The position numbers and the translations under genes are program-made. The notes beneath the pieces are model-generated. The model saw only the letters and a program-made list of their open reading frames with translations, made no database searches and was not told where the DNA came from. A stretch of 64,000 bases of DNA from positions 32,001 through 96,000 of the forward strand of contig CAWCXJ010000013.1 of the NCBI GenBank assembly GCA_963799485.1, read 5' to 3'. Every line of letters begins with the position of its first letter. Positions within the stretch are counted from its first letter, which is position 1. Shown in pieces: positions 1,486-64,000 of the stretch. Source of the DNA: an uncultured Trueperaceae bacterium (lineage in GTDB: Bacteria > Deinococcota > Deinococci > Deinococcales > Trueperaceae).

Positions 1486-3039
1486 ATGGAACGTTCAGCA
1501 GGTATTCTTTTGCACCCGACCTCGCTTCCGGGGGGGCACGGTATCGGTGATTTGGGCGCGCAAGCTTACGCCTGGGTCGATTTTCTAGAGGCGGCGAAAC
1601 AGGGGTTGTGGCAAGTCCTCCCGCTCGGGCCGACAGGCTACGGCGACTCGCCGTACCAGAGTTTTAGTGCGTTTGCCGGAAACCCGAACCTGATCAGTCT
1701 GGACGGGTTGTTGGCGCAAGGTTTTCTCAGCTCCGACGACCTCGGGGAAGCTCCCGCCAACGACGGCCCCGTCGATTACGGTGCGGTCATCCCCTTCAAA
1801 GACGCCGCGCTGCGACGCGCCGCCGAAACCTTCCAAAAAATTGCAACATCTGAACAACAGGCCGAATTTAGCGCGTTTTGCGGCGCGCAGGCGTACTGGT
1901 TAGACGATTACGCGCTCTTTATGGCGCTTAAGGAAGCGCATGGCGGCGCAGCCTGGAACAGCTGGGGTACCGACCTGCGGACGCGCAAAAAACGTGCGCT
2001 GGCTAAGTTCAGCAGCGAAAATGAAGCAACGATTACCCGCCACAAGCTCTGGCAGTGGTTCTTTTACGGGCAGTGGCTGGCGCTTAAAGGCTACGCCAAC
2101 GACCGGGGTATCCAGATTATCGGTGATATTCCTATCTTTATCGCCTACGACTCCGCCGACGCGTGGGCGAACCCCGAGCTGTACTACTTCGACGATGAGG
2201 GCAATCCGGAGGTCGTCGCGGGGGTACCGCCCGACTATTTCAGCAAGACCGGGCAACGTTGGGGTAACCCGCTCTACCGCTGGAAAAAGATGGAGAAACG
2301 CGACTTCGCCTGGTGGGTCTCGAGGTTTCGCTCGTGCCTGGACTTTTACGACCTCATCCGCGTCGATCACTTTCGCGGCTTCGAGTCGTACTGGGAAATT
2401 CCTGCTGAAAACGACACCGCCGAACACGGTCGCTGGGTCAAAGGCCCCGGTCAGGCGCTTTTCGATACGCTCGAGCGTGAGCTGGACGATTTACCTATCA
2501 TCGCCGAGGATTTGGGCGTCATCACGCCCAAGGTCGAAAAACTGCGTGACGACAACGGCCTGCCGGGGATGAAAGTCTTGCAGTTTGCCTTTGCCGGAGA
2601 CGGCGCCGACCTCTATTTGCCGCACAACTATTCTGAAAACTTCGTCGTCTATACGGGTACCCACGACAACGACACCACGCAGAGCTGGTACGACAGCGCG
2701 CCTACCGGTGAACGCCACTTCGTCCGGCGTTACCTGGCCCGCGACGACAGCGCCGTCGTCTGGGAGCTTATCCGGCTGGCGTTTTCGTCGGTGGCCCGCT
2801 ACGCGGTCGTGCCGCTGCAAGACGTTTTGCAACTCGGTTCCGAAGCGCGGATGAACACGCCGGGTCAGGCGGGGGGGAACTGGGGCTGGCGGTTTGAAGA
2901 AGGGCAGTTAGAGCCCTGGATCGCGCCCGCACTGGCTGATATGACTGAAATGTACAACCGGATACCGGGCGCGGAGGTCGCGGATACCCCGTACCGGCAG
3001 AGCGCAACGAAAACGGAGATTGAAGAAGAGGCAGACTGA
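1486..3039 (+). CDS. malQ: 4-alpha-glucanotransferase (amylomaltase, GH77)
   Basis: GILLHPTSLPG, RVDHFRGF, IIAEDLG, YTGTHDNDT motifs; AGGAG RBS. Confidence 0.97.
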   Translation: MERSAGILLHPTSLPGGHGIGDLGAQAYAWVDFLEAAKQGLWQVLPLGPTGYGDSPYQSFSAFAGNPNLISLDGLLAQGFLSSDDLGEAPANDGPVDYGAVIPFKDAALRRAAETFQKIATSEQQAEFSAFCGAQAYWLDDYALFMALKEAHGGAAWNSWGTDLRTRKKRALAKFSSENEATITRHKLWQWFFYGQWLALKGYANDRGIQIIGDIPIFIAYDSADAWANPELYYFDDEGNPEVVAGVPPDYFSKTGQRWGNPLYRWKKMEKRDFAWWVSRFRSCLDFYDLIRVDHFRGFESYWEIPAENDTAEHGRWVKGPGQALFDTLERELDDLPIIAEDLGVITPKVEKLRDDNGLPGMKVLQFAFAGDGADLYLPHNYSENFVVYTGTHDNDTTQSWYDSAPTGERHFVRRYLARDDSAVVWELIRLAFSSVARYAVVPLQDVLQLGSEARMNTPGQAGGNWGWRFEEGQLEPWIAPALADMTEMYNRIPGAEVADTPYRQSATKTEIEEEAD

Positions 3040-3049
3040 TAACTGCTAC

Positions 3050-3081
3050 AAGAGGGTAGTTCATGGGTACGCTACCCTCTT
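3050..3081 (+). terminator. Stem-loop downstream of malQ
   Basis: AAGAGGGTAG ... CTACCCTCTT perfect 10-bp inverted repeat 10 nt after the stop; weak U-tract. Confidence 0.55.
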
Positions 3082-3157
3082 AGCTTGACCTGAGTGTTCC
3101 AGATGTTCGTAATAAGGGTTGTCGGATTGGCTTGCTTGTGCTTTAAGAGAGCATTGA

Positions 3158-3521
3158 ATGAAAACCTCGCAAGGTGGAACTCAAATATACTGTCCCCATT
3201 GCAAGAGAGTGAGAGTCTGCAAAGCCGTTTCACCTTCCGAGTATGGGAATCTTCAGAACGACAGCTGTATACGACAAATCACGAAGACATTCGTTGGTTT
3301 CATAGAGGTCGCTTTTGCCTCAACGGTAACGCGACCTTTTGACAGCAGAAGTTGACGAAAATTTTCTGGATGAGTTGGTTGAGTTGAGAAGGGCACTAGC
3401 TGTGGTCAGATCCAACGCGGAAAAGTATATGGAAGAACCTAAATTGGCATCAAAAACCTTAAATAAGTTTGTGAAACCGTTGGATAAGTTAAGAGCTTTA
3501 CAAGTTCATGACGATGTATGA
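3158..3521 (+). pseudogene. Frameshifted low-GC zinc-ribbon (CPxC...RxRxC) hypothetical protein
   Basis: Three consecutive frames stitch into MKTSQGGTQIYCPHCKRVRVCKAVSPSEYG / ESSERQLYTTNHEDIRWFHRGRFCLNGNATF / LTAEVDENFLDELVELRRAL...; AT-rich relative to flanks. Confidence 0.65.
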
Positions 3522-3581
3522 TCCCGTTAGGATTGAAGCAGTCGCCAGTATCATCAAGAATGAAGCACAGGCAAATCCGAG

Positions 3582-4805
3582 TTAAGTTCTAAAAAGCACA
3601 TCCTCACGCCGAAAACTGCGTAAGGCAAACCAGAGCAAAAGTGCTGCTAAAAGGAGGCTCGAGCCCCACGCTAACAGCGCTAAAGGCAGCTCGAACGTTC
3701 CTTTTACGGCGTCGTTCATCAAAAGCAGTGTGCCGAACGCAGGCAGCGCGTAGATAACCGGGCTCGAGCCGAAAAAGTCCGAAAATTGCAAGCTCACGAC
3801 CGGCAGCACCAAAACGAGCGAAAGCGGCGCGACGTAGCTCTGCGCCTCCTTAAACGAGCGCGCAAAAAGCGTGATGGCAATCAGCAGCGCGGCGACGAGC
3901 GCCGCTAACAGCAGGGCGCTTACCAGCAGTGCGAGCAGTTCGCTAGCGTTGACGCGCAAGGTTCCGCCGAGACCCTGCGCGACTCTTCCGGCCCCACCAC
4001 TCAGCCGCCCGCTAAACGCCACGCTCAGCAGCCACCCACTCCCCAAAAACCCCACCAGCGCCACCGACGCCGCGCTCAGGCCGAACAGCAAGGTTGCCGA
4101 AAACTTGCCGACGACGACCTCGGCGCGTCTTACCGGGCTCACGAGCAGCGCCTCCAACGTCCCGCGTTCTTTCTCCCCGGCGGTCGCGTCGATGGCGACC
4201 ATCTGCCCGCCGGTCAGTGTCCAGATAATCACGAAAAAAGGGATCAGCCAGCCGAGTGACCCGCTCGCACGCTCCGACGCGGTGCTCGCGTCGCGGGTCT
4301 CGAGCCTTAGCGGGGTGAGGATGTTGGGCTCGAGTCCTGCCTGCTCAATCCGTTGCCGGACGAGCGACTTTTCGTAGGTTTCGACCGCTCCGGTTAGCTT
4401 TTCCGTTAGGAGTTCGTCACGTAGCCCGCCGCTTTTACGGTACAGCACGAGCGACGCACGCCCTTCGCGAAGGTTTGCGGCAAAACTTTGCGGTACGCTA
4501 AATGCCGCCACGACTTCTTCTGAATGCACCGCAGCCTCAGCGTTTTTTACGGCGACTAAACGGATATTTTCGCGCTCCATTGTTGCTACGAAAGCCGTCG
4601 GCAAACGTCCTAAACCTTCTGCGCCGACCGTCGTCTCCCGCACCGCTTCACGCCCAAACAGCCCGCCCAAAACGAGCGGCAAGCCGAGCATCACGAGCGG
4701 CAGCACGACGAGGGGAATGAGCAGGTTGGCAAGCACCGCGCGGTGGTCTCTCAGGGTGGACAAGACTTCACGGTAGGCGACCGCCCAAACCATCCCCGGC
4801 CTCAC
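3582..4805 (-). CDS. ABC-2 type exporter permease (NatB-like)
   Basis: AGEKERGTLEALLVSPV and ARSFKEAQ motifs; multiple TM segments. Confidence 0.9.
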   Translation of the reverse strand: MRPGMVWAVAYREVLSTLRDHRAVLANLLIPLVVLPLVMLGLPLVLGGLFGREAVRETTVGAEGLGRLPTAFVATMERENIRLVAVKNAEAAVHSEEVVAAFSVPQSFAANLREGRASLVLYRKSGGLRDELLTEKLTGAVETYEKSLVRQRIEQAGLEPNILTPLRLETRDASTASERASGSLGWLIPFFVIIWTLTGGQMVAIDATAGEKERGTLEALLVSPVRRAEVVVGKFSATLLFGLSAASVALVGFLGSGWLLSVAFSGRLSGGAGRVAQGLGGTLRVNASELLALLVSALLLAALVAALLIAITLFARSFKEAQSYVAPLSLVLVLPVVSLQFSDFFGSSPVIYALPAFGTLLLMNDAVKGTFELPLALLAWGSSLLLAALLLWFALRSFRREDVLFRT

Positions 4806-5575
4806 GGCGTCACCTCGTCCGTTATTTTGTCCTTCCGGGCTGAACCTGCCTGAACCAGATTACGCTCGACCAGTTTGAAAAAGGCGGCCTCGAGCCCCGC
4901 CGCCCCAGCCTCGTGCACGAGCTGTTCAGGCGTCCCCTGCGCAACGATTTCACCGCCGTAAAGAATGGCGACGCGCCCGCACAACTCTTCAACCTCGCTC
5001 ATCACATGCGTCGAGTAGAGTACCGTGCGCCCCTCGGCGGCGTAAGTTTTGACGAACTCCAACACGCTCCGCCGCGCCATCACGTCCAAACCGGAGGTCG
5101 CTTCGTCGAAAAAGATGATGTCGGGGTCGTGCAGCACCGCCCGCGCGATGACAATTTTTTGCTTCATGCCGGTGGAGAAGTCGCCGGCGCGTTTGCCTAG
5201 CGTGCTGCCCAGGTCTAGGGGGGAGCCTAATTCCTCAATCCGCGCGTCTACCTGAGCCCGCTTCATGCCGTAAAGCCGCCCGAAATAGCGGAGCGTTTCC
5301 CGCCCCGTCAGGCGGTCGTAAAGCCCCATCCCGCCACTGACGACGCCGATACGCCGCCGCACCTGTTCAGGCTGCTTCGCCACATTAAAGCCGCCGACCT
5401 CCGCATGGCCTTCAGTCGGTGAGAGGAGCGTCGCCAGAATCCGCAAGGTCGTCGTTTTACCCGCCCCGTTCGGGCCGAGCAGTCCGAACACCTCACCCGG
5501 AGAGACCGTAAACGATACGCCGCGCAGCACGGACGTTTCGCCGAACGTTTTGCCTAGAGCTTCCGCTAGAATCAT
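4802..5575 (-). CDS. ABC transporter ATP-binding protein (NatA-like)
   Basis: Walker A GPNGAGKTT, FSTGMKQK signature, FFDEATSGLD; start placed at ATG 5575; 4-nt overlap with permease. Confidence 0.93.
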   Translation of the reverse strand: MILAEALGKTFGETSVLRGVSFTVSPGEVFGLLGPNGAGKTTTLRILATLLSPTEGHAEVGGFNVAKQPEQVRRRIGVVSGGMGLYDRLTGRETLRYFGRLYGMKRAQVDARIEELGSPLDLGSTLGKRAGDFSTGMKQKIVIARAVLHDPDIIFFDEATSGLDVMARRSVLEFVKTYAAEGRTVLYSTHVMSEVEELCGRVAILYGGEIVAQGTPEQLVHEAGAAGLEAAFFKLVERNLVQAGSARKDKITDEVTP

Positions 5576-5687
5576 CTTCGTATCATAGGGCGCGTGCGCA
5601 CGACCAAAGTTACGGACCTTCACGTGTTGCGCCGTAAAATCTTTCTACTTTCGCATCTCGCGCCGTAAAAGTCCGTTCTCACGTCTC

Positions 5688-6473
5688 ATGTATGATGAGG
5701 CCGTGTCCGAACACGACTTTGGCGCTTTAGACAGCCTGCAGCTGATTCCGCGCCTTTTGCACGGGGTTGCCGACCCCGACACGCACCTGACGCTGCTGGG
5801 CCGCGACCTCGCTGCGCCGATGTTGCCCTTAGCCGACACGCTAGGGGGCGACGCCGGAACGCTCAGCTTGCTGGACGCTGAACTGCTCTTGGCCCAAGAC
5901 GACGCGTTTCCGGCAACCTTGCCCCTCTTGAAACCTGAAAAGATGGGCTTACTCATGCCTAAGGTCAGAAAGTTGGTGGCTCGAGGGGTGCCGGGGTTCG
6001 TGCTCGATTTGACCGCCTTTGCCGAATCGCCGCCTTACGGGAGCCTCGAGTTCCACCCCCGCACCCGCGAAGACCTGGCTGAACTCCGCGCCGCTGCCGG
6101 GGTTCCCTTGTGGCTTTACGGCGTCAGCAGCGTGTCCGACGCCGAAGTTGCGAGTGAAGCGGGTTTGGAGGGCGTCGTCGTCAACACCGGGGCCGGCATA
6201 TTTCTGGGCGCACCGGCAACGGCTGAGGTTTTTCCCGATATTCTCGACGCGGTAGCCGGGACGATTTCGGTCTACGCCGGGGGCGAGGTGCGGAGCGGCG
6301 TCGATGTGTTTCGTTATCTCGCCCTCGGCGCCGAGGCCGTCGTGGTCGATACCGACCGTTCGCTCCTGAACTTGCGGGCCGAACTCACCTACGCCATGCG
6401 TTTGACCGGCTGTGAAACCCTCGCCGACATCTCGTATGAAGCTATTTTTGCGCCGCTTTTTAGCGAACTTTAG
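5688..6473 (+). CDS. FMN-dependent alpha-hydroxy acid dehydrogenase-like protein with degenerate active site
   Basis: Family-like segments LIPRLL, VRSGVDVFRYLALGAEAV, AMRLTGC; SNHGGR replaced by VNTGAG. Confidence 0.75.
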   Translation: MYDEAVSEHDFGALDSLQLIPRLLHGVADPDTHLTLLGRDLAAPMLPLADTLGGDAGTLSLLDAELLLAQDDAFPATLPLLKPEKMGLLMPKVRKLVARGVPGFVLDLTAFAESPPYGSLEFHPRTREDLAELRAAAGVPLWLYGVSSVSDAEVASEAGLEGVVVNTGAGIFLGAPATAEVFPDILDAVAGTISVYAGGEVRSGVDVFRYLALGAEAVVVDTDRSLLNLRAELTYAMRLTGCETLADISYEAIFAPLFSEL

Positions 6474-6552
6474 CCGAATGGGGTACGGTTTCAAAAAGGT
6501 TTCCCTCGAGTATCCTTGACCCCTGTAAAAGCTCCGCCCTATACTCCGGGGC

Positions 6553-7545
6553 ATGAGCGCCCCCAGCCCAGCCAAAGCCGTCAAAACATTCCTGTTCGTG
6601 CTGACATTCACGTTTTTGCTGACAGGGTATGCCCAGCAAATGCCCGCGACCGCTGAAGCCGTGCAGCTCAAGACACCCTCGGGTACCCTGTACGGCACCT
6701 TGCAGCTACCTGCGGGCAAAGGGCCTGTTACCGTCGCTCTCATCCACCCCGGCTCCGGCCCGACCGACCGCAACGGCAACCAGGGAATTGTGCAGCCAGA
6801 CAACCTCAAACTGCTCGCCGAAGCCCTCGCGCAAAATGGTATCGCCAGCCTTCGCATTGACAAACGCGGCGTCGGTGAGAGTGCAGCGGCAGCCTCTTCA
6901 GAGGCGGAGTTGCGTTTTGATACCTACGTCGGGGACGCCGCCCGGTGGTTGGAACAGCTCAGGGGAGACCCCCGCTTTAACACCGTCGCCGTTATCGGAC
7001 ACAGTGAAGGCGCACTCATCGGGCTGCTCGCCGCTAAGAAAGCAGACGCCGACCTGTACGTCTCTATCGCCGGTGCCGGCGAGCGGGCGAGTGACATCTT
7101 GCGCCGCCAGCTCAGCCAGCAGCTGCCGGAAACGCTGATGCAGGAGGTTGACGCTATCCTAAAGCGTTTAGAGGCAGGGGAGATCGTTGACCCGCTGCCG
7201 GAGAGTGTCGCAAACGTCCCCGCTCTCGCCAGTCTCTTTCGCGCCAGCGTCCAGCCCTACCTCATCAGCTGGTTCAAGTACGACCCCGCGCAGGAGCTGA
7301 GCACTCTGGAGATACCGGCCCTTATCCTTCAGGGTACGACGGACTTGCAGGTTTCCGAAGCGGACGCGCGTAAGCTTGGAGAGGCGCAACCGGACGCCGA
7401 GCTGGTCTTCGTACCGGGGATGAACCATGTGTTTAAGGAAGCGCCCGCCGACCCGGCGGCGAACGAGGCAACCTACACCAACCCGGATTTGCCGCTAGCG
7501 GGCGGACTGGTAGAGCCGCTCGTCACCTTTTTGGAGAAAAAGTAA
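6553..7545 (+). CDS. Secreted alpha/beta-fold hydrolase
   Basis: Signal peptide; GSGPTDRNGN, nucleophile GHSEG, QGTTDLQV, GMNH. Confidence 0.9.
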   Translation: MSAPSPAKAVKTFLFVLTFTFLLTGYAQQMPATAEAVQLKTPSGTLYGTLQLPAGKGPVTVALIHPGSGPTDRNGNQGIVQPDNLKLLAEALAQNGIASLRIDKRGVGESAAAASSEAELRFDTYVGDAARWLEQLRGDPRFNTVAVIGHSEGALIGLLAAKKADADLYVSIAGAGERASDILRRQLSQQLPETLMQEVDAILKRLEAGEIVDPLPESVANVPALASLFRASVQPYLISWFKYDPAQELSTLEIPALILQGTTDLQVSEADARKLGEAQPDAELVFVPGMNHVFKEAPADPAANEATYTNPDLPLAGGLVEPLVTFLEKK

Positions 7546-7653
7546 ACTCCGTTCTGGACTTTCCGCGCCTTTGGTAGACAAACCTTACGAAGTGGTCGTG
7601 CGGTTCGGAAAGTGCGTTTTGCACCCTCGGCTACCCGACTATAGAAACCGGCG

Positions 7654-8034
7654 CTAGCGTTTAAGTGCCCGGAGCCGTTTAGCTGCCTCTTCTGCGCCGA
7701 TTTCGCCGCGCTCCAAGAGCCCCAAAATATCGGTACGCTCCCCCCGCACTTCCTGCGTTTCCGGCGGCGATTCGTAGCCGAGCGAGCGGAGCATCCCGTC
7801 GAAGCGGCTCCTGACTGTCGGATACGACACGCCCAAAATCCGCTCGACCTCTTTGAGGTTGCCGCGCACGCGCATAAAGAGCCGCATAAACTCGAGGTTC
7901 TCCGGGCTCAGCGTGGCAAACTCGTTCGGCGTAAAACGCCCTTCGATGGCGACGCCGGAGGTGGGACACTCGAGCCGCGTGACCTCCAGCGGGTCTCCCG
8001 TAACCGGGCAGCGGGTCGGCATCGGCAAGCTCAT
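7654..8034 (-). CDS. DUF2089-family protein (Zn ribbon + HTH + SHOCT-like tail)
   Basis: CPVTG...CP, RGNLKEVERILGVSYPTVR, LERGEIGAEEA. Confidence 0.88.
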   Translation of the reverse strand: MSLPMPTRCPVTGDPLEVTRLECPTSGVAIEGRFTPNEFATLSPENLEFMRLFMRVRGNLKEVERILGVSYPTVRSRFDGMLRSLGYESPPETQEVRGERTDILGLLERGEIGAEEAAKRLRALKR

Positions 8035-9151: not shown

Positions 9152-9169
9152 GTCATCTCCTTTTGCTAA

Positions 9170-9226
9170 AAGATAAACCTAAACTATGAATATGTCAAGT
9201 AAAAATTGCTATATGTAAAAATTGCT
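9170..9226 (-). promoter_or_regulatory. Sigma70 promoter TTGACA-17-TATCTT with upstream 12-bp direct repeat
   Basis: -35 at 9198-9193, -10 at 9175-9170; GTAAAAATTGCT at 9199-9210 and 9215-9226. Confidence 0.75.
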
Positions 9227-56392: not shown

Positions 56393-56582
56393 AGATTTGA
56401 CTCCTTCACGGGTTAAGTTTACCCGTTTACGGGCAAACCGGCGGCGTCTCGGTGACAGGCTTTAACGCCGGCGTAACCGTTTTTGCCTTTATGCCTCAGT
56501 TGTACCCTGGTACGCCGATATTCGGTATTCGGCAACTGAAACTGCCCTGCGCCTAAAAAATCTCAGATGTTACAAAAAAGAC

Positions 56583-56611
56583 TTTACAACCGTGTGCAAG
56601 GTGTGTAAAAT
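56583..56611 (+). promoter_or_regulatory. Sigma70 promoter TTTACA-17-TAAAAT
   Basis: -35 at 56583-56588, -10 at 56606-56611. Confidence 0.7.
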
Positions 56612-56617
56612 GAGCTC

Positions 56618-56647
56618 GTGATATACGTTTTCGCTCGAGCTAGCTGA
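56618..56647 (+). CDS. Candidate leaderless leader peptide MIYVFARAS
   Basis: GTG 6 nt after the -10 box; followed by a hairpin and a terminator. Confidence 0.5.
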
Positions 56648-56678
56648 CCTGCGGTACGTTTTAACGTATCGCTCTCCC

Positions 56679-56708
56679 GACCGGCCCCCACGTGGTGCGG
56701 TCTTTTTT
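56679..56708 (+). terminator. Attenuator-type terminator in the aminotransferase leader
   Basis: GACCG-GCC...GGT-G-CGGTC followed by TTTTTT, 63 nt before the ATG. Confidence 0.7.
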
Positions 56709-56771
56709 ATTGCTACTTTTTTACCTCTACTTTATCGGCGGGCTGCTCGGCCTAAACAGAAAAGGTGTGAC

Positions 56772-57935
56772 ATGAACGCTCCCCAACCCGTGCTGCTCTT
56801 GACCCCCGGCCCTACCCCCCTGCACCCCCGGGCTAGCGCAGCCCTGTCGTGGCCGATGATCGGTCACATGGACCCGGAGGTTTTCGCCTACAACGACCGG
56901 GTGGCGCGCGACCTCAAGGTGCTTTACGGCGCAAACGACGACGCGTTTACCGCGCTCTTGTCCGGCACGGGTTCCTTGGGGATGGAGGCGGGCTTTGCCA
57001 ACTTGCTCGAGCGGGGCGACCGGGCGCTCGTTTTATCGAACGGCGTGTTCGGCGAGCGGATGGCGGAGATGGCGTTGCGGCTCGGCGCGGAGGTAAGTGT
57101 GCTGCGCGCGCCGCTCGGCAGTCCGGTGGAGGTCGGTGAGGTGCGGCGGGCGGCCCGTGAGCTGCAGCCGAAACTCATCTCGGTCGTTCACGGCGAGACG
57201 AGTACAGGTGTGCTGAACCCGGTGCCTGAAATCGGTCAGGTCGCCCGCGAGGTCGGCGCGCTCTATTCGGTGGACGCGGTGACAACCGTCGGGATGTTGC
57301 CCTTTAACGCCTCGGCGTGGGGGATCGATTACGCCTATACGGGTTCGCAAAAGTGTTTGTCAGCCCCGCCCGGACTCGCCCCGGTGATGTTCAGCCGCCG
57401 CGCGGTGGAGGTTATCGCGGCGCGCAAGACGCCGGTCGGTACCTGGTACGGCGACGCGCTCGGGATGCTCGGCTACTGGGGTGAGGGGCCGGTGCGGAGC
57501 TACCATCACACCGTTCCGGTACAACTGCACTGGGCGACCGGCGAGGCGATTCGGGCAGTTTTAGAAGAGGGTATTCCGGCGCGGGCGGCGCGGGCGCGGG
57601 CGCTCGAGGACGCCGCCCTCTACGCCCTCTCCGCGCTCGGGTTTCGAGCTTTCGTCCCCGAGGCGTACCGTTTACCGACGGTTTTAGCCGTAGAACTTCC
57701 TGAAGGTTTCGACGACGCCGGTGTCCGGGCTGCGCTCCGCGAACGCTACCGCATCAGCGTCACCGGCGGGCTCGGCGCGACGGCGGGTAAAATCTGGCGA
57801 CTCGGTTTGATGGGCGAAAGCGCCCACGCCGCGCACTACGCGCGGCTGATGGACGCGTTATCAGAGATTCTGGGCGCGCCCGAACTCAAACGCCGTTTCG
57901 ACGAGGCGACCCTGGGGGCGGCGGTTGTCCGCTGA
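56772..57935 (+). CDS. Class-V PLP aminotransferase (alanine-glyoxylate/serine-pyruvate family)
   Basis: [46 protein letters not shown]. Confidence 0.93.
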
Positions 57936-58515
57936 CCCGGACGCTCAAGCTTTAGACCCGCAGTTTTTAGAGGCGGTGAGCACGCACACGCCGAACGACC
58001 GGGTGCGCGCTCAGGCGGCGGCTGCCGGGATGGATTTGGACGCGTTACGAGAGCGCGAGCCGCTGACCTACGCGGCGCTGAACGCGGTTTTACTGGTGCG
58101 TACCGACGCGCGGCTTGCTTCTCAGGTGAACGCGGTACTCGCACAGGTCGCGCCGCACGCACAGCTTTTTACGGTGCCGCTGACAAATCCGCAGACCAAT
58201 ACCGAGCTGCGCGTTTTTCCGCCTCTGCAAAAAGAGTGGACAGCCCTCGACGACGCGTTAGGGGTGTTTGCGGGGACACAACCGGGTAGCCTCTTCTACC
58301 GCACGGTCAGCGACCGCTCGGGTGCGCGCCGTGAACTGGCGTGGCCCCTCGAGCCTAAAGCCTGGCAGGCCGGAACCGCGCTCGTCGGCCCTTTCGCCGA
58401 CGAGGCGGAAGCAAACGCCTGGGGACAAGTTCACGCCGACCCGCGCGCCGGGTTTGTCTTCGACGCCCTGCCCTATGCGGGCGCGTGGTACTGCGACGTA
58501 TTTAAGGGCGACTGA
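57925..58515 (+). CDS. Hypothetical protein
   Basis: ORF overlapping the aminotransferase stop, with typical codon usage. Confidence 0.65.
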
Positions 58516-58605
58516 CTGCCGACTCGGCGCGGGTGTAACGAACCCTGCCGGGAGCGGTAACTGCGTGGCTGAGGCGATAAGCCTACAGGCCGTATACTCG
58601 GGTCT

Positions 58606-59645
58606 ATGACGCAAGCTGCTGAAGCCACCTCAACCTCACGTGCCGACCGAAAAACGCAACCGTGTTTTTTCCGGGGTGCAACCGACCGGCGACCTTCATC
58701 TGGGCACCTACCTGGGCGCGCTCAAAGGCTGGGTCGCGCGCCAAGACGAAGCGGAAAATATCTTCTGCGTCGTTGACCTGCACGCGCTGACGGTACCTGA
58801 AGCCGTAAATCCGGCGGTTTTACGGGAGAAGTCCTTAGAGGTCGCCGCCCTTTACCTTGCCGCCGGTCTCGACCCGAAAAAAAACCTGATCTTTATCCAG
58901 TCGCACGTCCGTGAACACAGCGAACTCGCGTGGATTTTGAACTGTCTGACGCCGCTCGGCTGGCTTTACCGGATGACGCAGTTCAAATCGAAATCCGAAG
59001 GGCGTGAGAGCGTCGGCTCGGGGCTCTTGACCTATCCGACGCTTGATGGCCGCCGACATCTTGCTCTACGACACCACTTCCGTTCCGGTAGGTGACGATC
59101 AGCGCCAGCACGTAGAACTTACCCGTGACGTCGCCACGCGCTTTAACAACATGTTCGGCGACGTTTTTACCTTGCCGAACGCGACCATCCCCGAAGAGGG
59201 CGCACGCGTCATGGGATTCGACGACCCCGCCGTAAAAATGAGCAAAAGCCTCGCGGTGACGCGTCCGGGGCACGCGGTCAACCTGTTGGACGACGAAAAG
59301 ACCATCAAAAAAGCGGTGATGTCGGCGGTGACCGACTCGGGGCGTGATACCCGGTTTGCCACTGCCTCGCCGGGAGTCAAAAACCTCTTGTCGCTCTACA
59401 AAGTCCTGACGAATACGCCGATGTCCGACATCGAAGCGAAATTTGACGCTCAGGGTTACGGGACGCTCAAAAAGGCGCTGCTCGGCGAGATTCTAGCGAC
59501 GCTCCAACCTTTACAAGCACGCTACGCCGAGATTACGGCAGATGAGGCGGGCTTAAAACGCATTTTAGCAAGTAGCGCCGAGCGCGCCCGCGACATCGCC
59601 TCAAAGACGACCGCACGCGTCCGTGACGCGACAGGTCTGGGCTGA
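58606..59645 (+). CDS. trpS: Tryptophan--tRNA ligase, interrupted by +1 frameshift(s)
   Basis: [20 protein letters not shown] | [23 protein letters not shown]; frame break at about 59043, possibly another at the A5 run near 58650. Confidence 0.92.
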
Positions 59646-60517
59646 GCGTACTGTTTCTCTTTCTGGACGGTGTGGGGCTCGGCACGTCCGACGCTGCGGT
59701 GAACCCTTTTACGGCGGCACAGACGCCGTTTCTCTCGTCCTTGCTGGGTGGCCCCCTGAGCGCCGAACGAACCGTCATCGACACGCCTCAGCTGCAGTTT
59801 CGGCCTCTCTCGGCGACGCTTTCGCACGCGGGTTTGCCGCAATCGGCGACAGGCCAAACGACGCTCCTAACGGGTCAGAACGGGGCCGAACTGATGGGGC
59901 GGCACTACGGGCCGTGGCCGGGGCCGACGCTCAAACGGGCGCTGGGTAAAGGCACAATCTTCTCCGAAGTCGTCTCTGCGGGGGGCCGCGTAGGGCTTGC
60001 CAACGCCTTTCCGCCCGGTTACTTTCGTGCGCTCACTGAAGGCAAGCAAAAGGTCAACGTCCCGGTCTATGCAGCGCAGCAAGCAGGGGTCAGGCTCCTG
60101 ACGCAAGCTGATTATGACGCTGGCAACGCCGTCAGTGCCGATTTAGACGGACAGTATTTAGGTGTACCGCAACCGCTCGCCGAAGCCGGGGCGCAGCTCG
60201 CGCGACTCGCTGCGGGCAATGACCTGACCTTTTTCGATTTCTGGCTCTCCGACACAGCAGGCCACCGCTGGACGTTTGACGAAGCGGTCAAGCTTACCGA
60301 AAAACTCGACGGGTTTCTGGCAGGCGTCGTTCCGGCGCTCGGCAGCACGACGCTGGTGCTAACGTCCGACCACGGGAACCTCGAGGATAAGTCCACCCGT
60401 TCACACACCCGCAACCCGGTACCGCTGCTGGTAATAGGTCCTTACGCCGCTACCTTCGCCGGAGCCACAAGTCTGCTGGACGTGACTCCGGCCTTACGCG
60501 TTGCCCTGGAGCTCTAA
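59642..60517 (+). CDS. Alkaline-phosphatase-superfamily metalloenzyme (phosphopentomutase/iPGM-like), probable CTG start
   Basis: [42 protein letters not shown]. Confidence 0.85.
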   Translation: MSVLFLFLDGVGLGTSDAAVNPFTAAQTPFLSSLLGGPLSAERTVIDTPQLQFRPLSATLSHAGLPQSATGQTTLLTGQNGAELMGRHYGPWPGPTLKRALGKGTIFSEVVSAGGRVGLANAFPPGYFRALTEGKQKVNVPVYAAQQAGVRLLTQADYDAGNAVSADLDGQYLGVPQPLAEAGAQLARLAAGNDLTFFDFWLSDTAGHRWTFDEAVKLTEKLDGFLAGVVPALGSTTLVLTSDHGNLEDKSTRSHTRNPVPLLVIGPYAATFAGATSLLDVTPALRVALEL

Positions 60518-61671
60518 CCGCCTAGAAGCCTCGGCAAGATGATAATCGCCGCCTCGTACCACGCGCCGATAACGAGCAGTAAAAACGCTATCGGCAGCAT
60601 CATCGTGAGTTTGCGAAACGCCAGCCTGAACCCGGCCAGACCGCCCCGGATGAGCGTGACGAGGAGCATCCCGCCGCCTGCGGTGACGAGTACATACGCC
60701 ATCAGTTCGATAAGGATAAGTACGGCGATAGAGAGCAGCGTCGCCGGGTCGCTCTGGGTTAAAAAACCAAACGGCACGCCGAGCGCGAGAAAACGGGCAC
60801 CGTTCAGGATATACGCGAGTACCCCGAACGAGATAAAGGCGACCCCGTAAGTCGTCACGACCGCGCCCATGACGAAGTTTTGGTAGAGCGTCGCGGCGGC
60901 GGCCCGCGCGACGTTACCGCTTTCGTACGCTTGCGCCGCGCCGAGCTGCGACACGCCCTCTTCGACGAGCTGGGTAACGGTCTGGGCGCAGACGGGCGGG
61001 AGGTTCGCGCCCGTAAAAACGCCGAGCCCGAAAAGTCCGTAGAGGAGCGAGATGGTGACAATCGTCAGGCGGCGGTGTTCGCGTAAATAACCCCAGCCCT
61101 CGGCGAGCCAGCGGCGAAAAAACGATGGGCGCACGAGCAGATAGATAAATAGAAGGCTGAAGGCCGCAAAAATCCAGGCAGCGACCGGCCCTTGCAGCGC
61201 GGCGGGAATGGTCGGGGTCTGAACGTTTGTCTGGACGCCGACGTTTGCTATTTGCCAGCGCCCGTCTTGATTTTTTAGGTTGACCTCGAGTACTGCCAAA
61301 CGCTCCCCCGGAAACGTCACCGGGTAGGTGTAGCGGCGCGCCTCCGGGGTGCTGTCACGTTCGACCCGGTTCTCAAAGTTGACGGTGGTACCCGCCGGCG
61401 GCGCAGGGTTGTTCAGCAGCGTCGGCAGTTGGCGGCAGACCGCTTCGGGAGAAAGCGAAGAGAGCGTCACCGGGTCAAACGGTTCGCGTGCCAGCCACGC
61501 GCGCACGGCGTTGTCCGCGACTGCTGCGGGGGCGCGCGTTTGTCCGGCTTGAGCGGTCGGCGCGGCGGGAGTTTGCTGCGGCAGCGTTTGAGATTGCCCT
61601 GCGGCGGTGGGTGCTCCCTGAACTGCGCTCAAGGCCGTGAACAGCAGCAACGCTAAAAAAAGTCGCCTCAT
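60514..61671 (-). CDS. SpoIIM-domain membrane protein with N-terminal exported domain
   Basis: Signal peptide MRRLFLALL; ATGA overlap with pyrE; C-terminal IELMAY and AWYEA. Confidence 0.75.
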   Translation of the reverse strand: MRRLFLALLLFTALSAVQGAPTAAGQSQTLPQQTPAAPTAQAGQTRAPAAVADNAVRAWLAREPFDPVTLSSLSPEAVCRQLPTLLNNPAPPAGTTVNFENRVERDSTPEARRYTYPVTFPGERLAVLEVNLKNQDGRWQIANVGVQTNVQTPTIPAALQGPVAAWIFAAFSLLFIYLLVRPSFFRRWLAEGWGYLREHRRLTIVTISLLYGLFGLGVFTGANLPPVCAQTVTQLVEEGVSQLGAAQAYESGNVARAAAATLYQNFVMGAVVTTYGVAFISFGVLAYILNGARFLALGVPFGFLTQSDPATLLSIAVLILIELMAYVLVTAGGGMLLVTLIRGGLAGFRLAFRKLTMMLPIAFLLLVIGAWYEAAIIILPRLLGG

Positions 61672-62207
61672 ACTTCCTCTAACGGTACACCGTCGCGGCA
61701 CAAGGGGCACGCGTCTGGTGTGTGGGTGGGAAACTCGAGGCTCAAAAGCGAACGCGGCGCGAGCGGCGAACCGAGGCGGTCGATGATGCAGCCTACGTCG
61801 GCACATTCGGCCCCTTCCGCTTCGGCGGCGCGAATCGCCTTGCGCAGCGACCCGCCGGTCGTAATTACGTCCTCGACGGCTAAAAACCGCTCGCCCGGAG
61901 AGATTTTGAACGCGTCCCGGATGAGCATCCGGTTTTTGCTGAACTTTTCGGCAAAGATAGCCCGGCACCCGAGCGCGCGGGCAACCGTATGCGCTAAAAC
62001 CACCCCGCCCATCGCCGGGCCGAGCACGAAGTCGGGTTCTAAACCCCGAAACTTGGCGGCGAGCGCGGCCCCGAGCGCTTCGGCGCGTTCCGGGTGCTGA
62101 AAGACGGTGGTCGATTGCAAAAACTTGGGGGAGTGGCGGCCCGAGGCGAGTAAAAAGTGCCCCTCGAGAAGTCCGCCGCTCTGCCGGTAAAGGTCTAGTA
62201 CGTCCAT
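61668..62207 (-). CDS. pyrE: Orotate phosphoribosyltransferase
   Basis: GHFLLASGRHS, GPAMGG, VEDVITTGGS, CPLC. Confidence 0.95.
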   Translation of the reverse strand: MDVLDLYRQSGGLLEGHFLLASGRHSPKFLQSTTVFQHPERAEALGAALAAKFRGLEPDFVLGPAMGGVVLAHTVARALGCRAIFAEKFSKNRMLIRDAFKISPGERFLAVEDVITTGGSLRKAIRAAEAEGAECADVGCIIDRLGSPLAPRSLLSLEFPTHTPDACPLCRDGVPLEEV

Positions 62208-62330
62208 GTTCGCCCAGCATACCGCGGCGACCCCGCCAACCGGAGCTCCCGGGTAGATGTTTCATAAGCCGGCGTGTTGTGAAGTGTACTGCAAACGAGT
62301 GTGCGACCTGTATCCGGTAAACTGGGTTGG

Positions 62331-62828
62331 ATGAAACGGGTGGAGTGGTGGGGGAACGCGGCGCAGCGCACCCTGATGGCACTTTTCCCATGTCTGGCCC
62401 GACCCGACGATACGCTGGCCCAAAACACACTTTCCGAAGCCGAATTCAGGCTCTACCGGCAGATGGACGTGCGCGACCGTGCCCACGCTTGCGCCGTGGC
62501 GCGCCGGCTTTCGGCGCTCTACCCGGACGCGTCGGACGTACTGCGCCGCGCCGCGCTGCTTCACGACGTCGGCAAAGCCGGATACGTCTACAGGCCGTGG
62601 CAGCGTATTTTCGTCGCGCTCTACACGCCGCGCACGGTGCCCGCGACGCCGCGCCTGTCAGGACTTAAGGGGGCGTGGCAGTTGCGGCGGCATCACGACC
62701 GTTACGGGGCCGAGGCCATCTTGAGCGCCGGGGGAGACGCCCGCGTCGCCGAACTCGTCGCGCGTCACCACCGGCCCGGAACCGACGCCGAGGCGGCCCG
62801 GCTGATGGAGATCGATGCCCGCTTTTAA
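62331..62828 (+). CDS. HD-domain protein
   Basis: DRAH, ALLHDVGK, HH; leaderless TAAACT-7-ATG. Confidence 0.85.
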   Translation: MKRVEWWGNAAQRTLMALFPCLARPDDTLAQNTLSEAEFRLYRQMDVRDRAHACAVARRLSALYPDASDVLRRAALLHDVGKAGYVYRPWQRIFVALYTPRTVPATPRLSGLKGAWQLRRHHDRYGAEAILSAGGDARVAELVARHHRPGTDAEAARLMEIDARF

Positions 62829-64000
62829 CCAACGGGAGGCGCTCGGCGCACAGCTCGAGTGGCTTTTTGCCCGGCAACGTTTCGGAATCAAGCTCGGTCT
62901 AAAGCGGGTTCGGGCACTTCTGGAAAGGCTGGGGCATCCTGAAGACGCTTTTACGGTCGTTCTCGTCGGCGGTACCAACGGCAAGGGGAGCTGTGCGGCG
63001 ACTCTCGCCGCCATCTTAGGAGCTGACGGACGCCCCACGGGGCTTTTTACGAGCCCGCACCTGACGCACTTCAGCGAGCGGTTTCAGGTGGACGGCGCGC
63101 CGGTTTCAGAGGCTGAACTGCTCACCGGGCTAGCGGCTGTGCGCCCGCACGCGGAGGCTTTGGGCGCGACCTTTTTTGAAATCGTCACGGCGCTCGGTTG
63201 TGTTTTGTTCGCCCGGCGTGGTGTCGAGGCGGCTGTCATGGAGGTCGGTCTCGGGGGGCGCTTCGACGCGACGAACGCCCTTTCACCGCGCCTGAGCGTG
63301 ATTACCGGCGTGGCGCTCGACCACACCGACGTTCTGGGCGACACTCTGGGAAAAATCGCTGCGGAAAAAGCAGGCATCATGCGTTCTGGAATCCAGGCGC
63401 TGACGGGCGGGTCGGGTGAAGCCCTGGACGTTTTACGGGGCGCGGCAGGCGAGCTGGGCGCGCCGCTCTGGGTACTCGGTGATGAAATCGCGCTTACGGC
63501 AACCGCTTTGGGTTGGTCGGGGGTGCGGTGCCAGGTCGAGAGTCCGCTCGGAAGCGTTGAGGTCACGACGCCGCTTTTAGGACTGCACCAGGCCCGTAAC
63601 GTCGCGCTGGCGGTGGCTGCCGCGCAGCAGTTGGGGGTCTCCGGCGGAGCGATTCGGGAGGGTGTCGCACGAACCCGCTGGGCAGGCAGGCTCGAGCCCC
63701 TCGTTTACCAGAACCGGACATTTTTACTCGACGGCGCGCACAATCCGCAGGCGGCCTCTGCGCTCGCCGACGCTTTAGGGCGTCTGGACGCTGCGCCTGT
63801 TACTTTTATCTTCGGCGCTGCGGCGGACAAAGACCTGCGTGGCCTTGTCGAAGCATTAGCGCCGGCTGCGTCGCAAGTCATCGTCACTCGCGCCGCGCTG
63901 AGCCCCAGGGCCGCTGCACCGGAAACCCTGGCTGAGCTGTGGCTACCCTATGCTTACCCTGTTCACCGCGCAGATATGCCGAAAGATGCACTCGAGCAAG
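62815..64000 (+). CDS. folC: Folylpolyglutamate/dihydrofolate synthase, 3'-truncated by window edge (absent from the ORF track)
   Basis: GGAG then ATG 62815; translates to ..RQRFGIKLGL..VGGTNGKGS..FTSPHL..EVGLGGRFDATN..LDGAHNP. Confidence 0.93.
   Translation, partial: MPAFNQREALGAQLEWLFARQRFGIKLGLKRVRALLERLGHPEDAFTVVLVGGTNGKGSCAATLAAILGADGRPTGLFTSPHLTHFSERFQVDGAPVSEAELLTGLAAVRPHAEALGATFFEIVTALGCVLFARRGVEAAVMEVGLGGRFDATNALSPRLSVITGVALDHTDVLGDTLGKIAAEKAGIMRSGIQALTGGSGEALDVLRGAAGELGAPLWVLGDEIALTATALGWSGVRCQVESPLGSVEVTTPLLGLHQARNVALAVAAAQQLGVSGGAIREGVARTRWAGRLEPLVYQNRTFLLDGAHNPQAASALADALGRLDAAPVTFIFGAAADKDLRGLVEALAPAASQVIVTRAALSPRAAAPETLAELWLPYAYPVHRADMPKDALEQ

Follow-up and report, generated by a model that had tools for sequence, protein, structure and literature searches.

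Over-represented words of bacterial chromosomes include Chi and the KOPS/FtsK-orienting polar sequences, which have a strong leading-strand skew, and the highly iterated palindromes of cyanobacteria. Among the latter, HIP1 is palindromic and linked to methyltransferases, and very-short-patch-like repair tied to a methyltransferase has reportedly been proposed for it. Another group is formed by the DNA-uptake tags. The USS of Haemophilus consists of a core and helically phased T-tracts, which are proposed to help DNA kinking in the cited part of the source (PMC3458573). The DUS of the Neisseriaceae is GCCGTCTGAA, with the 12-mer ATGCCGTCTGAA; as described in the cited portion of PMC3630211, it has clade-specific dialects and the receptor ComP, contains a stop codon when read in one of its frames, and builds up in the core genome. 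Inverted-repeat terminator pairs are frequent for both DUS and USS, according to the cited part of 10.1101/2025.10.24.684340.

Here we confirm that the core word CCGTAAA (longer form CGCCGTAAAA) occurs at about one copy per kb in the own chromosomes of an uncultured Trueperaceae bacterium and two sister species. The window, that is, the whole stretch of 64,000 nucleotides analyzed (contig CAWCXJ010000013.1), contains 45 exact copies of CCGTAAAA/TTTTACGG, with CCGTAAAA found 19 times on the plus strand and 26 times on the minus strand, while dinucleotide-preserving shuffles gave 3.01 +/- 1.70 copies (largest value 8; 0 of 100 shuffles reached 45). The over-representation claimed in the preliminary description is therefore real, and all 43 positions listed there were correct, with two minus-strand copies, at 48114 and 58167, omitted. 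The 7-base core occurs 78 times, and the 33 of these copies whose last letter is C, G or T, not A, are omitted from the list below. Frequent extension to GCCGTAAAA, also claimed earlier, is borne out by 23 such copies, and CGCCGTAAAA is present in 17 copies. The copies of CCGTAAAA in the window are as follows.

2062..2069, minus strand, exact match
3702..3709, minus strand, exact match
4433..4440, minus strand, exact match
4545..4552, minus strand, exact match
5632..5639, plus strand, GCGCCGTAAAA; same-orientation pair with 5663 at 31 bp, between divergent ORFs
5663..5670, plus strand, GCGCCGTAAAA; second of the pair with 5632
8277..8284, minus strand, exact match
8348..8355, plus strand, inverted pair with 8361
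8361..8368, minus strand, inverted pair with 8348, 13 bp start to start
8864..8871, plus strand, exact match
9062..9069, plus strand, exact match
11621..11628, minus strand, exact match
13108..13115, plus strand, exact match
14027..14034, minus strand, exact match
15140..15147, minus strand, next same-orientation copy at 62 bp
15202..15209, minus strand, exact match
15504..15511, plus strand, exact match
17152..17159, plus strand, GCGCCGTAAAA; same-orientation pair with 17182 at 30 bp, between divergent ORFs
17182..17189, plus strand, TCGCCGTAAAA; second of the pair with 17152
19114..19121, minus strand, exact match
20841..20848, minus strand, exact match
22334..22341, plus strand, exact match
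22582..22589, plus strand, exact match
25746..25753, plus strand, exact match
29233..29240, minus strand, exact match
29749..29756, minus strand, exact match
35693..35700, minus strand, exact match
37342..37349, minus strand, within alpha-amylase gene
37494..37501, minus strand, within alpha-amylase gene
37800..37807, minus strand, within alpha-amylase gene
37858..37865, plus strand, within alpha-amylase gene
38853..38860, plus strand, exact match
47895..47902, minus strand, exact match
48114..48121, minus strand, absent from the earlier list
48312..48319, plus strand, exact match
52772..52779, plus strand, exact match
53800..53807, plus strand, exact match
55879..55886, minus strand, exact match
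58167..58174, minus strand, absent from the earlier list
58818..58825, minus strand, exact match
59230..59237, plus strand, exact match
59707..59714, minus strand, exact match
61011..61018, plus strand, exact match
62949..62956, minus strand, exact match
63431..63438, minus strand, exact match
1..64000, no strand, whole window as genome sample, with the 78 cores

Genome-wide (3.655 Mb in 15 contigs), the 8-mer is present in 1547 copies, 779 and 768 by strand, and the core in 3274, about one per 1.1 kb. The reversed letters AAAATGCC, identical in composition to the 8-mer, occur 200 times and are 7.7-fold rarer than the real word; for the 10-mer the difference is 22-fold. Within coding sequence, as defined by a crude in-house gene caller (3090 genes, 80.6% coding), the 8-mer was found 1206 times versus 208.9 in synonymous shuffles (5.77-fold), and the 10-mer 433 times versus 40.3 (10.7-fold). 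Of the null models proposed earlier, the codon-preserving one leaves the signal in place, whereas the observed-to-expected ratio of the 8-mer declines from 22.8 at Markov order 0 to 4.8 at order 3, 1.44 at order 5 and only 1.17 at order 6, because high orders take in the word's own sub-words.

The word acts as a DNA-level signal, 5.8-fold above synonymous-codon shuffles, as was originally suggested. The word is read in each of the five stop-free frames but never in the TAA frame, copies also lie between genes, and coding and intergenic copies share the flank consensus of the extended form (C)(G)CCGTAAA(A). In coding DNA the word is spelled partly with sparingly used codons, for example TTA (7% of Leu codons) and GTA (12% of Val codons), and the Phe codon before TACGG is TTT in 179 cases versus TTC in 4, compared with 61% TTT elsewhere. 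The enrichment needs about 10 bp of context. Around dnaA, replication polarity of the Chi/KOPS type is lacking: the sense-strand orientation of copies is 153:77 in co-directional genes versus 124:68 in those transcribed head-on (p = 0.68), and copies between genes split 50:48.

Copies belong to resident chromosomal rather than mobile DNA. The plasmid-like contigs C2 and C3 contain 0.256 copies/kb versus 0.921 elsewhere (3.6-fold, Poisson p = 2e-22), and TAAAA, CTAAAA, TCTAAAA and CTCGAG are as dense on them as elsewhere. Depletion in islands, named earlier as a check, was complete, with zero copies in mobile islands; most of the longest word-free gaps bear integrases, transposases, TraG/VirD4 or RepB primase. 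In G005, one of the sister species, accessory contigs hold 49 copies in 190.6 kb versus 0.755/kb on the chromosome. We also observed a word-free dnaA region in all three species (10.1, 7.8 and 12.1 kb), a new feature, in which one-off variants have a normal density (4.64/kb versus 4.03 genome-wide).

Among 128 family genomes, the 10-mer is hyper-enriched in three, G000 (540 copies), G005 (435) and G001 (196), the next having about 60. These three genomes have a common flank consensus and fall on one side of a tree split with support 1.0. The word is found in the outgroup G002 at 7 of 221 G000 sites, versus 9-14% for control 7-mers, and the outgroup words at these sites (ancestral-like) are diverse, with changes including G-to-C; the sites arose by convergent point substitutions. 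They are also maintained, 83 of 181 G000 sites being shared with G005 versus 24.7% for same-composition 7-mers (p = 1e-9). Between sister species the majority of sites are not the same, and many are lineage-specific, so the word-writing process is still running. A 400-kb sample from the sister species G002 revealed no alternative "dialect" word. Two observations on gene content do not by themselves establish the phylum label: the plasmid-borne malate synthase has its best matches in Deinococcus (57-61% identity), and a search for DdrB gave no match.

Copies up to about 110 bp apart are in phase at about 10.3 bp, a new observation that was replicated in a second species. Same-orientation pairs 8-160 bp apart number 441 versus 224 expected, with a Rayleigh power of 29.3 at 10.2 bp, compared with at most 5.5 for 13 control words. 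These pairs are not DNA repeats, because their flanks have a mean identity of 0.298. Inverted copies, in their two arrangements, are offset by +0.40 and -0.40 turns, phases of equal size and opposite sign that fit the prediction of same-face geometry. In G005, same-orientation pairs gave a power of 11.1 and inverted ones 18.9, with a phase of -0.41; in G001 the phasing is weak (4.7 from 90 pairs). The A/T content flanking the word shows a weak 10.5-bp wave. Adjacent CCGTAAA...TTTACGG pairs 11-18 bp apart number just 13 among the 3274 copies.

As the best reading of these data, we tentatively propose that the word is a recognition site for a putative sequence-specific factor, spread by an uptake-sequence-like molecular drive. 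The natural-transformation machinery would prefer word-bearing DNA, the fragments taken up would recombine into the chromosome, and word-creating point mutations would be driven to fixation. The word would thus spread over the resident chromosome, on both strands and in any tolerable frame, and recent mobile arrivals would be without it. Built as a GC-rich core beside an A4 tract, with the A-tracts of neighboring copies sharing one helix face, it may be bound or taken up as bent DNA by a putative reader, as proposed for the Haemophilus USS. We infer that uptake bias may be the driver and that DNA bending may matter. Of the three readings offered in the preliminary description, uptake fits most tested hallmarks because of density, strand symmetry, mobile-DNA depletion and clade specificity. 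ComEA, ComEC, DprA, a secretin and type IV pilins are present; however, competence genes do not discriminate word-bearers, because ComEC is encoded in all six genus genomes, including three word-free ones. A search for receptors of the ComP/ComEA type, as envisaged earlier, yielded ComEA but no ComP-like pilin following the word's distribution: a minor-pilin cluster (163, 280 and 722 aa), compared across genus genomes, was detected in G005, G002 and G004, though in neither G001 nor G003, so that no pilin co-distributes with the word and no receptor candidate emerged. Further points count against the uptake reading: inverted-repeat terminator pairs are rare, the G002 sample has no dialect word, canonical DUS/USS enrichment is higher than in these genomes and, to our knowledge, transformable model species of the phylum take up DNA without sequence preference.

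The phasing and the origin gap, both absent from the preliminary description, are explained by a chromosomal DNA-binding protein no less well than by the uptake reading, and the nucleoid-protein reading given there keeps its standing and gains from them. The word would then be the binding site of an abundant putative nucleoid-associated, cohesion/sequestration-type or chromosome-marking protein, whose cooperative binding or wrapping would select for one helix face and for avoidance of the replication origin. We consider this explanation somewhat unlikely, even though it accommodates the excess and strong periodicity of non-repeat same-orientation pairs, the same-face geometry of inverted pairs, the recurrence of phasing in G005, the empty dnaA region despite normal one-off variant density, and the preference for the chromosome over plasmid-like contigs. 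Per-site selection would be tiny and hard put to drive TTA/GTA codons and amino-acid changes, the differences in most sites between sister species look more like drive and turnover, phasing in G001 is weak, and a candidate protein was not found. Moreover, we know of no nucleoid protein whose site is an asymmetric 7-10 bp word present thousands of times.

A sequence-specific repair or modification bias, such as very-short-patch-like repair tied to a word-recognizing methyltransferase, would convert mismatches towards the word on all long-resident DNA with no uptake role. The context dependence described above implies the sequence-specific protein that such a bias needs, A-tract one-off variants fall below synonymous shuffles (CCGTAGAA at 0.52), and at the orthologous sites of the outgroup CCGTAGA is the word met most often. 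Word-bearing genomes are also richer in DNA methyltransferase genes (PF01555 hits 1, 2 and 4 versus 0, 0 and 0 in the others), and G000 carries a Type III-like Mod/Res operon with a DrmD-like helicase. However, these methyltransferases are not orthologous: the G000 Mod is matched in G001 alone, by two pieces of 81-86% identity separated by a gap, next to a match that contains a TAA stop, and no match was detected in G005, where enrichment is as high as in G000. T-for-C variants, TCGTAAAA (223) and CTGTAAAA (123), are level with the A variants (208 and 123), and G-to-C transversions at positions 0 and 1 account for many of the word-creating changes. A cell-wide bias alone does not explain the deficit on plasmid-like contigs of genus-style composition, and helical phasing and the origin gap are left unexplained. 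The methylase/repair reading, suggested earlier, gained no support, as T-variants show no specific depletion and no methyltransferase follows the word's distribution, and we regard it as improbable.

Less probable still is a Chi-like recombination or repair signal for a translocating helicase-nuclease: an asymmetric 7-8-mer abundant on the chromosome and scarce on mobile DNA would suit it, but the nil polarity would demand breaks mostly not tied to replication, and the helical face should be irrelevant to a signal recognized on unwound, single-stranded DNA, whereas the copies here are phased. The idea that the enrichment merely follows from base composition, codon usage or amino-acid motifs, and that nothing reads the word, is effectively refuted: the genome does favor TTT (62%) and AAA (60%), TAAAA-containing words are generally 2-fold and CTAAAA 3.1-fold above synonymous shuffles, and the order-6 Markov model nearly absorbs the excess, but the word exceeds a null keeping protein sequence and codon usage, its reversed form of identical composition is rare, non-coding DNA shows the same consensus, CCGTAAA alone falls on C2 and C3, G003 and G004 (about 62.5% GC) are without enrichment, and helical phasing is unique to the word.

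Among described systems, Chi and KOPS resemble the word as over-represented asymmetric 8-mers on chromosomal DNA but differ in their polarity. Like HIP1, it is hyper-abundant genome-wide and spreads by point substitution within genes; unlike HIP1, it is asymmetric and has no co-distributed methyltransferase. The nearest parallel to the pattern is given by the DNA-uptake tags of Haemophilus and Neisseria, although between-copy phasing and a word-free origin are not described for DUS or USS in the cited parts of the sources. In contrast to DUS, the word has no co-distributed ComP-like pilin, no dialect in the G002 sample, and rare inverted-repeat terminators, which the cited source part reports as frequent for DUS. 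In common with DUS, as far as the cited portion describes it, the word is of 10-mer scale, occurs about once per kb, is clade-specific, accumulates in the core genome, and has one frame forbidden by a stop codon (TGA in DUS, TAA here); the first five letters GCCGT shared by DUS and GCCGTAAAA are most likely a coincidence. The USS is unrelated in sequence, belongs to another taxon with a far wider range than the three species here, and often forms inverted-repeat terminator pairs. For the present word no ComN/PpdA-type receptor was identified, and its phasing links distinct copies as far as about 110 bp apart, not only positions within an extended motif. Both, however, are hyper-abundant asymmetric words on both strands of coding and non-coding DNA, and both join a GC-rich core to A/T tracts in helical phase, here with the A4 tract inside the word.

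The asymmetric 8-mer CCGTAAAA, which contains the 7-base core CCGTAAA (reverse complement TTTACGG), occurs in 45 exact copies in the window, 19 on the plus strand and 26 on the minus strand, whereas dinucleotide-preserving shuffles of the window hold 3.01 +/- 1.70 copies and none of 100 shuffles reaches 45. All 43 coordinates listed in the preliminary description (43/43) were right on recount, and its figure of at least 43 copies was short by the two at 48114 and 58167. The window corresponds to C13:32001-96000 of the source genome. Across that genome (3,655,195 bases in 15 contigs, about 59% GC), the 8-mer is present 1547 times, with 779 and 768 copies on the two strands; the core has 3274 copies in 3.655 Mb, or one per 1.1 kb; and the commonest 10-mer is CGCCGTAAAA, with 540 copies. 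The same letters read backwards, used as a reversed control, occur 424 times as 7-mer, 200 times as 8-mer and 24 times as 10-mer, and single-base variants are 3- to 30-fold less frequent than the word, with the smallest deficit at the last A. Flank information is confined to C at position -2 (0.52), G at -1 (0.54; T there 0.04) and A at +7, and the word is therefore written (C)(G)CCGTAAA(A). An Rfam search of the window gave no matches.

The observed-to-expected ratio of the 8-mer declines from 22.8 in an order-0 Markov model to 4.8 at order 3 and 1.17 at order 6, as is expected of a model whose training data contain the sub-words of the word itself. Maximal-order Markov nulls, which absorb these sub-words, are uninformative for a 10-bp signal, and we used instead shuffles of synonymous codons inside each gene, with a gene set from a simple codon-usage caller (3090 genes, 80.6% coding) that missed some genes. 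The 8-mer had been proposed to act at the DNA level, with loss under a codon-preserving null as the test; the signal persists at 5.77-fold in coding sequence (1206 copies vs 208.9), composed of 427 sense copies vs 46.6 +/- 6.4 and 779 reverse-complement copies vs 161.7 +/- 8.9 in 30 shuffles, and the enrichment is 3.72-fold for the 7-mer and 10.7-fold for the 10-mer. Within genes, the 8-mer is distributed over the five stop-free frames (310, 117, 179, 319, and 281 copies) and has 0 copies in the TAA frame. Coding sequence (0.409/kb) and intergenic sequence (0.468/kb) carry it at similar densities and with an identical flank consensus. The word also shapes codon choice: TTT encodes Phe before TACGG 179 times and TTC 4 times, compared with 61% TTT elsewhere, and AAA encodes Lys after CCGTA 310 times and AAG 43 times, compared with 60% AAA elsewhere. 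The word takes in only some 6% of the TTA and GTA codons, so it does not account for codon usage at large. No consistent dependence of word density on gene conservation or GC3 was observed.

GC skew in the source genome is weak, and its dnaA-dnaN cluster is located at 179 kb of contig C7. On this contig, the ratio of word orientations relative to the sense strand is 153:77 in co-directional genes and 124:68 in head-on genes (Fisher p = 0.68), and intergenic copies divide 50:48 relative to the leading strand. The strand-skew check suggested in the preliminary description, by which strong polarity would have pointed to Chi or KOPS, detected no polarity around dnaA; word orientation tracks the coding strand only, which leaves a Chi- or KOPS-type role unsupported.

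Among 41 relatives in five families, enrichment was found only in G005 and G001, two genomes of the same genus as the source genome (G000). In 128 genomes of the family, where one of the 125 others (the unpublished G115) was counted only as negative, the 10-mer is hyper-enriched only in G000 (540 copies), G005 (435) and G001 (196), and the next-highest genomes have about 60 copies vs 20-30 for controls. Counts of the 8-mer and its reversed control are 1494/202 in G005, 787/223 in G001, and 193/114, 106/129 and 89/31 in the congeneric G003, G004 and G002, respectively; the excess over the control is about 7.7-, 7.4- and 3.5-fold in the three word-bearing species and a faint 1.7-fold in the nearest relative. 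GC content is 57-59.5% in the enriched genomes, about 62.5% in G003 and G004, and 69% in G002. In a tree built on 1885 columns from four concatenated proteins, a split with support 1.0 has G000, G001 and G005 together on one side, and the extended flank consensus is common to all three. No alternative "dialect" word was found in a 400-kb sample of G002, where only CTCGAG words are hyper-abundant.

The origin and turnover of sites were analyzed in codon alignments of G000 genes with 400-kb samples of G005 (242 genes), G001 (234 genes), and G002 (254 genes). G005 keeps 83 of 181 G000 sites, compared with 21-29% for all 7-mers, 24.7% for 7-mers of the same composition (p = 1e-9) and 30.1% for the single-base variants (p = 6e-5). 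G001 keeps 53/214 (24.8%), with no excess over controls (20-26%), and 53 of its 106 sites are common to G000, whereas G002 keeps 7/221 (3%), under its controls (9-14%). The orthologous words in G002 are diverse, with CCGTAGA the most frequent (26), then CCGCAAA, CCGTGAA, GCGCAAA and further ones; many have G for C at the first two positions, and point substitutions in ungapped codon alignments account for the differences between orthologous sites. This pattern indicates that convergent point substitutions, rather than insertion, gave rise to the word; dispersed repeat elements (REP, MITE) were rejected on the same substitutions and on flanks that are uninformative beyond -2, -1 and +7. In 55 genes aligned across the three word-bearing species, presence (1) and absence (0) of sites in the order G000, G005, G001 gave the patterns 100 (24 sites), 010 (18), 001 (8), 110 (11), 111 (7), 011 (3), and 101 (1). 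Some of the sites are ancestral, and each lineage is still accumulating sites or turning them over. The case is a young one: the word is confined to three species, and, as outgroups retain ancestral states, the substitutions that built it are directly readable.

Word-free stretches of up to 24 kb, vs the mean spacing of 1.1 kb, are found in the source genome. Pfam annotation of 107 ORFs in its 13 longest word-free gaps identified mobile-element hallmarks in most of them and ordinary genes in two; depletion in islands was among the checks suggested earlier. The annotated gaps include the following regions of the source genome:

C2, gap with transposases, a RepB-type primase and a recombination directionality factor
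End of C6 and C8:31-48 kb, gaps with integrases
C9:10-39 kb, two near-identical word-free modules, with duplicated TraG/VirD4-type coupling proteins, SNF2/NOV_C helicases (1170 aa) and transposases; probably duplicated conjugative-element remnants
C4:217359-241697, 24-kb stretch of 66% GC whose genes are metabolic or related to copper (CMAS-type methyltransferase, glucodextranase, G6PD, cytochrome b, multicopper oxidase, Na+/H+ antiporter); apparently an island whose donor had a higher GC content
C8:236-251 kb, gap with ordinary genes
Origin region, gap with ordinary genes

The plasmid-like contigs C2 and C3 (140.6 kb together) carry 36 copies, where the chromosomal rate predicts 129 (p = 2e-22), which corresponds to 0.256/kb vs 0.921/kb elsewhere, a 3.6-fold lower density. 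Similarly, the small contigs C1-C4 of G005 have 49 copies in 190.6 kb (0.26/kb) vs 0.755/kb in its chromosomal sample. The word marks resident vs mobile DNA in the word-bearing genomes.

Other words are also enriched in the source genome. CTCGAG has 7252 sites, 3.3-fold over an order-3 model and 3.4-fold over synonymous shuffles, with this example in the window:

17164, CTCGAG

Its density is about 2.0-2.2/kb in the four genus genomes sampled, which range from 57% to 69% GC, and on plasmid-like contigs too; its abundance looks like a genus-wide trait apart from CCGTAAA. Over synonymous shuffles, TAAAA is enriched 2.05-fold, CTAAAA 3.13-fold and TCTAAAA 5.55-fold. On C2 and C3, these three words and CTCGAG hold chromosomal density while CCGTAAA drops, so the latter reflects a separate process, outside the general compositional style. 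The coding sequence of the source genome prefers TTT (62%) over TTC and AAA (60%) over AAG, which is unusual at 59% GC; most other amino acids favor C- or G-ending codons. Several 6-bp palindromes are strongly avoided, including TTTAAA (22 copies vs 1196 expected) and, by observed-to-expected ratio, GGCGCC (0.04), CGGCCG (0.09), CGTACG (0.19), and CCGCGG (0.19), which suggests strong restriction pressure, past or present; TTTAAAA has only 4 copies. In the window, three long ORFs matched no Pfam family at E <= 1e-5:

17212-19857, plus strand, ORF of 881 aa
50908-52371, plus strand, ORF of 487 aa
60514-62430, minus strand, ORF of 638 aa

In all three word-bearing species, the core is missing from a stretch around dnaA that comprises the genes parA-gidB-gidA-dnaA-dnaN-eno-pyk-rplI:

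G000, C7:174792-184915, 10.1 kb
G005, C8:2514302-2522140, 7.8 kb
G001, C9:3375543-3387674, 12.1 kb

Given the word density of each genome, a gap of this length has a probability of about e^-9.3, e^-5.9 and e^-5.5, respectively. In the G000 region, single-base variants are present at 4.64/kb vs 4.03 genome-wide, and the densities of CGTAA and CTCGAG are normal too; the raw material is therefore there, and the complete word alone is missing. Genes of the origin region are highly conserved, with DnaA identity to G000 of 93-95% in G005, G001 and G003 and 87% in G002; elsewhere, word density shows no consistent fall with conservation.

A further property, absent from the preliminary description, emerged from the spacings between copies. 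Copies of the word cluster, with 441 same-orientation pairs 8-160 bp apart vs 224 expected, and 319 pairs in opposite orientation. The pair distances peak at multiples of about 10.3 bp (10-12, 21-22, 30-31, 42-43, 51-52, 62-63, 72, 92-94, and 102-103). Rayleigh power, defined as |sum exp(i 2 pi d/P)|^2/n with a null mean of 1, is 29.3 at P = 10.2 for same-orientation pairs, above the 3-bp codon signal (12.3), and 31.0 for adjacent pairs alone (n = 378). Phasing is present in all three classes of d mod 3 (power 20.8, 6.9, and 3.8) and fades past about 110 bp. The 24 flanking bases of paired copies have a mean identity of 0.298, with at least 0.6 in 2% of pairs, and such low identity means that the phased pairs are not DNA repeats. 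In 13 control words, including eight A-tract words and CTCGAG, no self-phasing was detected (power <= 5.5). An alpha-helix periodicity of about 10.8 nt was rejected as the cause, since the power at 10.8 bp is 4.9 vs 29.3 at 10.2 bp, phasing extends to pairs in different frames, and the control words are unphased. The A/T content around isolated copies oscillates weakly and in phase with the A-tract (amp/sd 9.2 at 10.5 bp), and the wave around control A-tract words is weaker and generic (amp/sd 5.4-5.8); this generic A-tract periodicity exists, yet the control words show no self-phasing, and it was rejected as the source.

At P = 10.3, same-orientation pairs have a phase of +0.02 turns (n = 329, power 31.2), CCGTAAA...TTTACGG pairs +0.40 (n = 117, power 7.5) and TTTACGG...CCGTAAA pairs -0.40 (n = 110, power 16.7). 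The equal and opposite offsets of the inverted pairs are the prediction of a same-face geometry, and the common reference point lies near position 5 of the word, at the center of the A-tract, or half a turn off at its 5' edge. G005 has 263 same-orientation pairs at gaps of 1-104 (reversed control, 3), 100 of which were analyzed and gave a power of 11.1 at 10.4-10.5 with phase 0, and 86 TTTACGG...CCGTAAA pairs (control, 3), 64 of which were analyzed and gave 18.9 at 10.2 with phase -0.41. The power for all 90 same-orientation pairs of G001 is only 4.7 at 10.0.

Phasing with a defined contact center, together with origin avoidance, constrains the type of protein that reads the word. We tentatively favor the reading that the word may work most like an uptake sequence. 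Its main rival, a nucleoid or chromosome-marking binding site, is considered less likely; the inter-copy phasing and the origin gap agree with a chromosomal DNA-binding protein no less well than with the uptake reading. With regard to uptake, the receptor search recommended in the preliminary description located ComEA and ComEC (C7:108-1689) in the source genome, which also encodes DprA, a secretin and a cluster of type IV pilins. ComEC is encoded in 6/6 genus genomes, including relatives without the word, so the competence machinery is necessary but not discriminating. The pilin cluster (C5:83.6-88.8 kb) encodes a PilA-like protein of 56 aa, a 722-aa PilX_N/DUF4900 protein, and pilins of 163 and 280 aa; with the G000 queries used, the three larger proteins were matched in G005, G002 and G004, not in G001 or G003. 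This one pilin cluster examined does not co-distribute with the word, and no receptor came out of the search, a point against assigning the word to the uptake sequences.

Ranked third, and improbable, is a repair- or modification-driven bias, an option also raised in the preliminary description. Matches to the methyltransferase family PF01555 occur only in the three word-bearing genomes, but in different genes; PF01555 and PF02384 matches are more numerous in these genomes and are not orthologous. The G000 match to PF01555 lies in a Type III-like operon (C4:100470-110583) that encodes a DrmD-like SNF2 helicase, a PIN pair, Mod (1084 aa) and Res (1076 aa); the mod gene has a GC content of 0.53 and 7 core copies in 3.25 kb. 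This Mod was matched only in G001, in two pieces of 81-86% identity separated by a gap, near another match that contains a stop, and was not found in G005. No orthologous methyltransferase common to the word-bearing genomes was present among the PF01555 and PF02384 matches checked, and the variant counts carry no Vsr-type signature, as T-variants are not specifically depleted; both observations argue against this bias.

Returning to the uptake-like reading, thousands of gene-embedded copies that run against codon and protein preference are more easily produced by molecular drive than by site-by-site selection, an argument established for the uptake signal sequence (USS) of Pasteurellaceae. To our knowledge, sequence-tagged recognition of self DNA in transformation has been described experimentally for two proteobacterial families only. 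More doubtful is the full scenario of a newly born self-recognition or uptake word in one genus, outside Neisseriaceae and Pasteurellaceae, with sister species at different saturation, phased A-tracts that would bend DNA coherently for a reader, and the word kept off the origin. If it holds, comparison of species distinguished by this trait alone would allow direct tests of how an uptake-type sequence arises and spreads and of what reads it, and the word could improve transformation-based genetics if uptake depends on it. Among the matches listed from the open-access literature, which do not prove the word to be unpublished, none concerned an uptake sequence in Deinococcus/Thermus relatives, and those on uptake sequences outside the two known families did not deal with this word or lineage; for the word itself, the 20 listed out of 1,063 papers gave only unrelated primer-type matches.

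Our comparison with the DNA uptake sequences of Neisseriaceae (DUS) and Pasteurellaceae (USS) draws on parts of PMC3630211, PMC3458573 and 10.1101/2025.10.24.684340, further papers from the literature search being PMC1939737, PMC7371117 and PMC12616744. The word resembles them in its occurrence at about one per kb, equally on both strands and without replication polarity, in any tolerable frame with the stop frame forbidden, and between genes. It is likewise clade-specific, built up by substitution and scarce in mobile DNA, in a genome with a competence toolkit. In contrast to DUS and USS, terminator-type inverted pairs are rare (13 adjacent pairs 11-18 bp apart among 3274 copies), and convergent intergenic regions are not enriched (0.90/kb vs 0.81-1.09/kb for other intergenic types). 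Inter-copy phasing and the origin gap also set the word apart, as neither is described for DUS or USS in the sections of these papers on which we draw. Unlike HIP1-type iterated palindromes, the word is not palindromic, and its orientations are distinguishable in frames and phase offsets. In the section of PMC3458573 used here, the USS is composed of a core and helically phased T-tracts, proposed to aid DNA kinking at the pore; this makeup is a precedent for linking an uptake word to the helical face.
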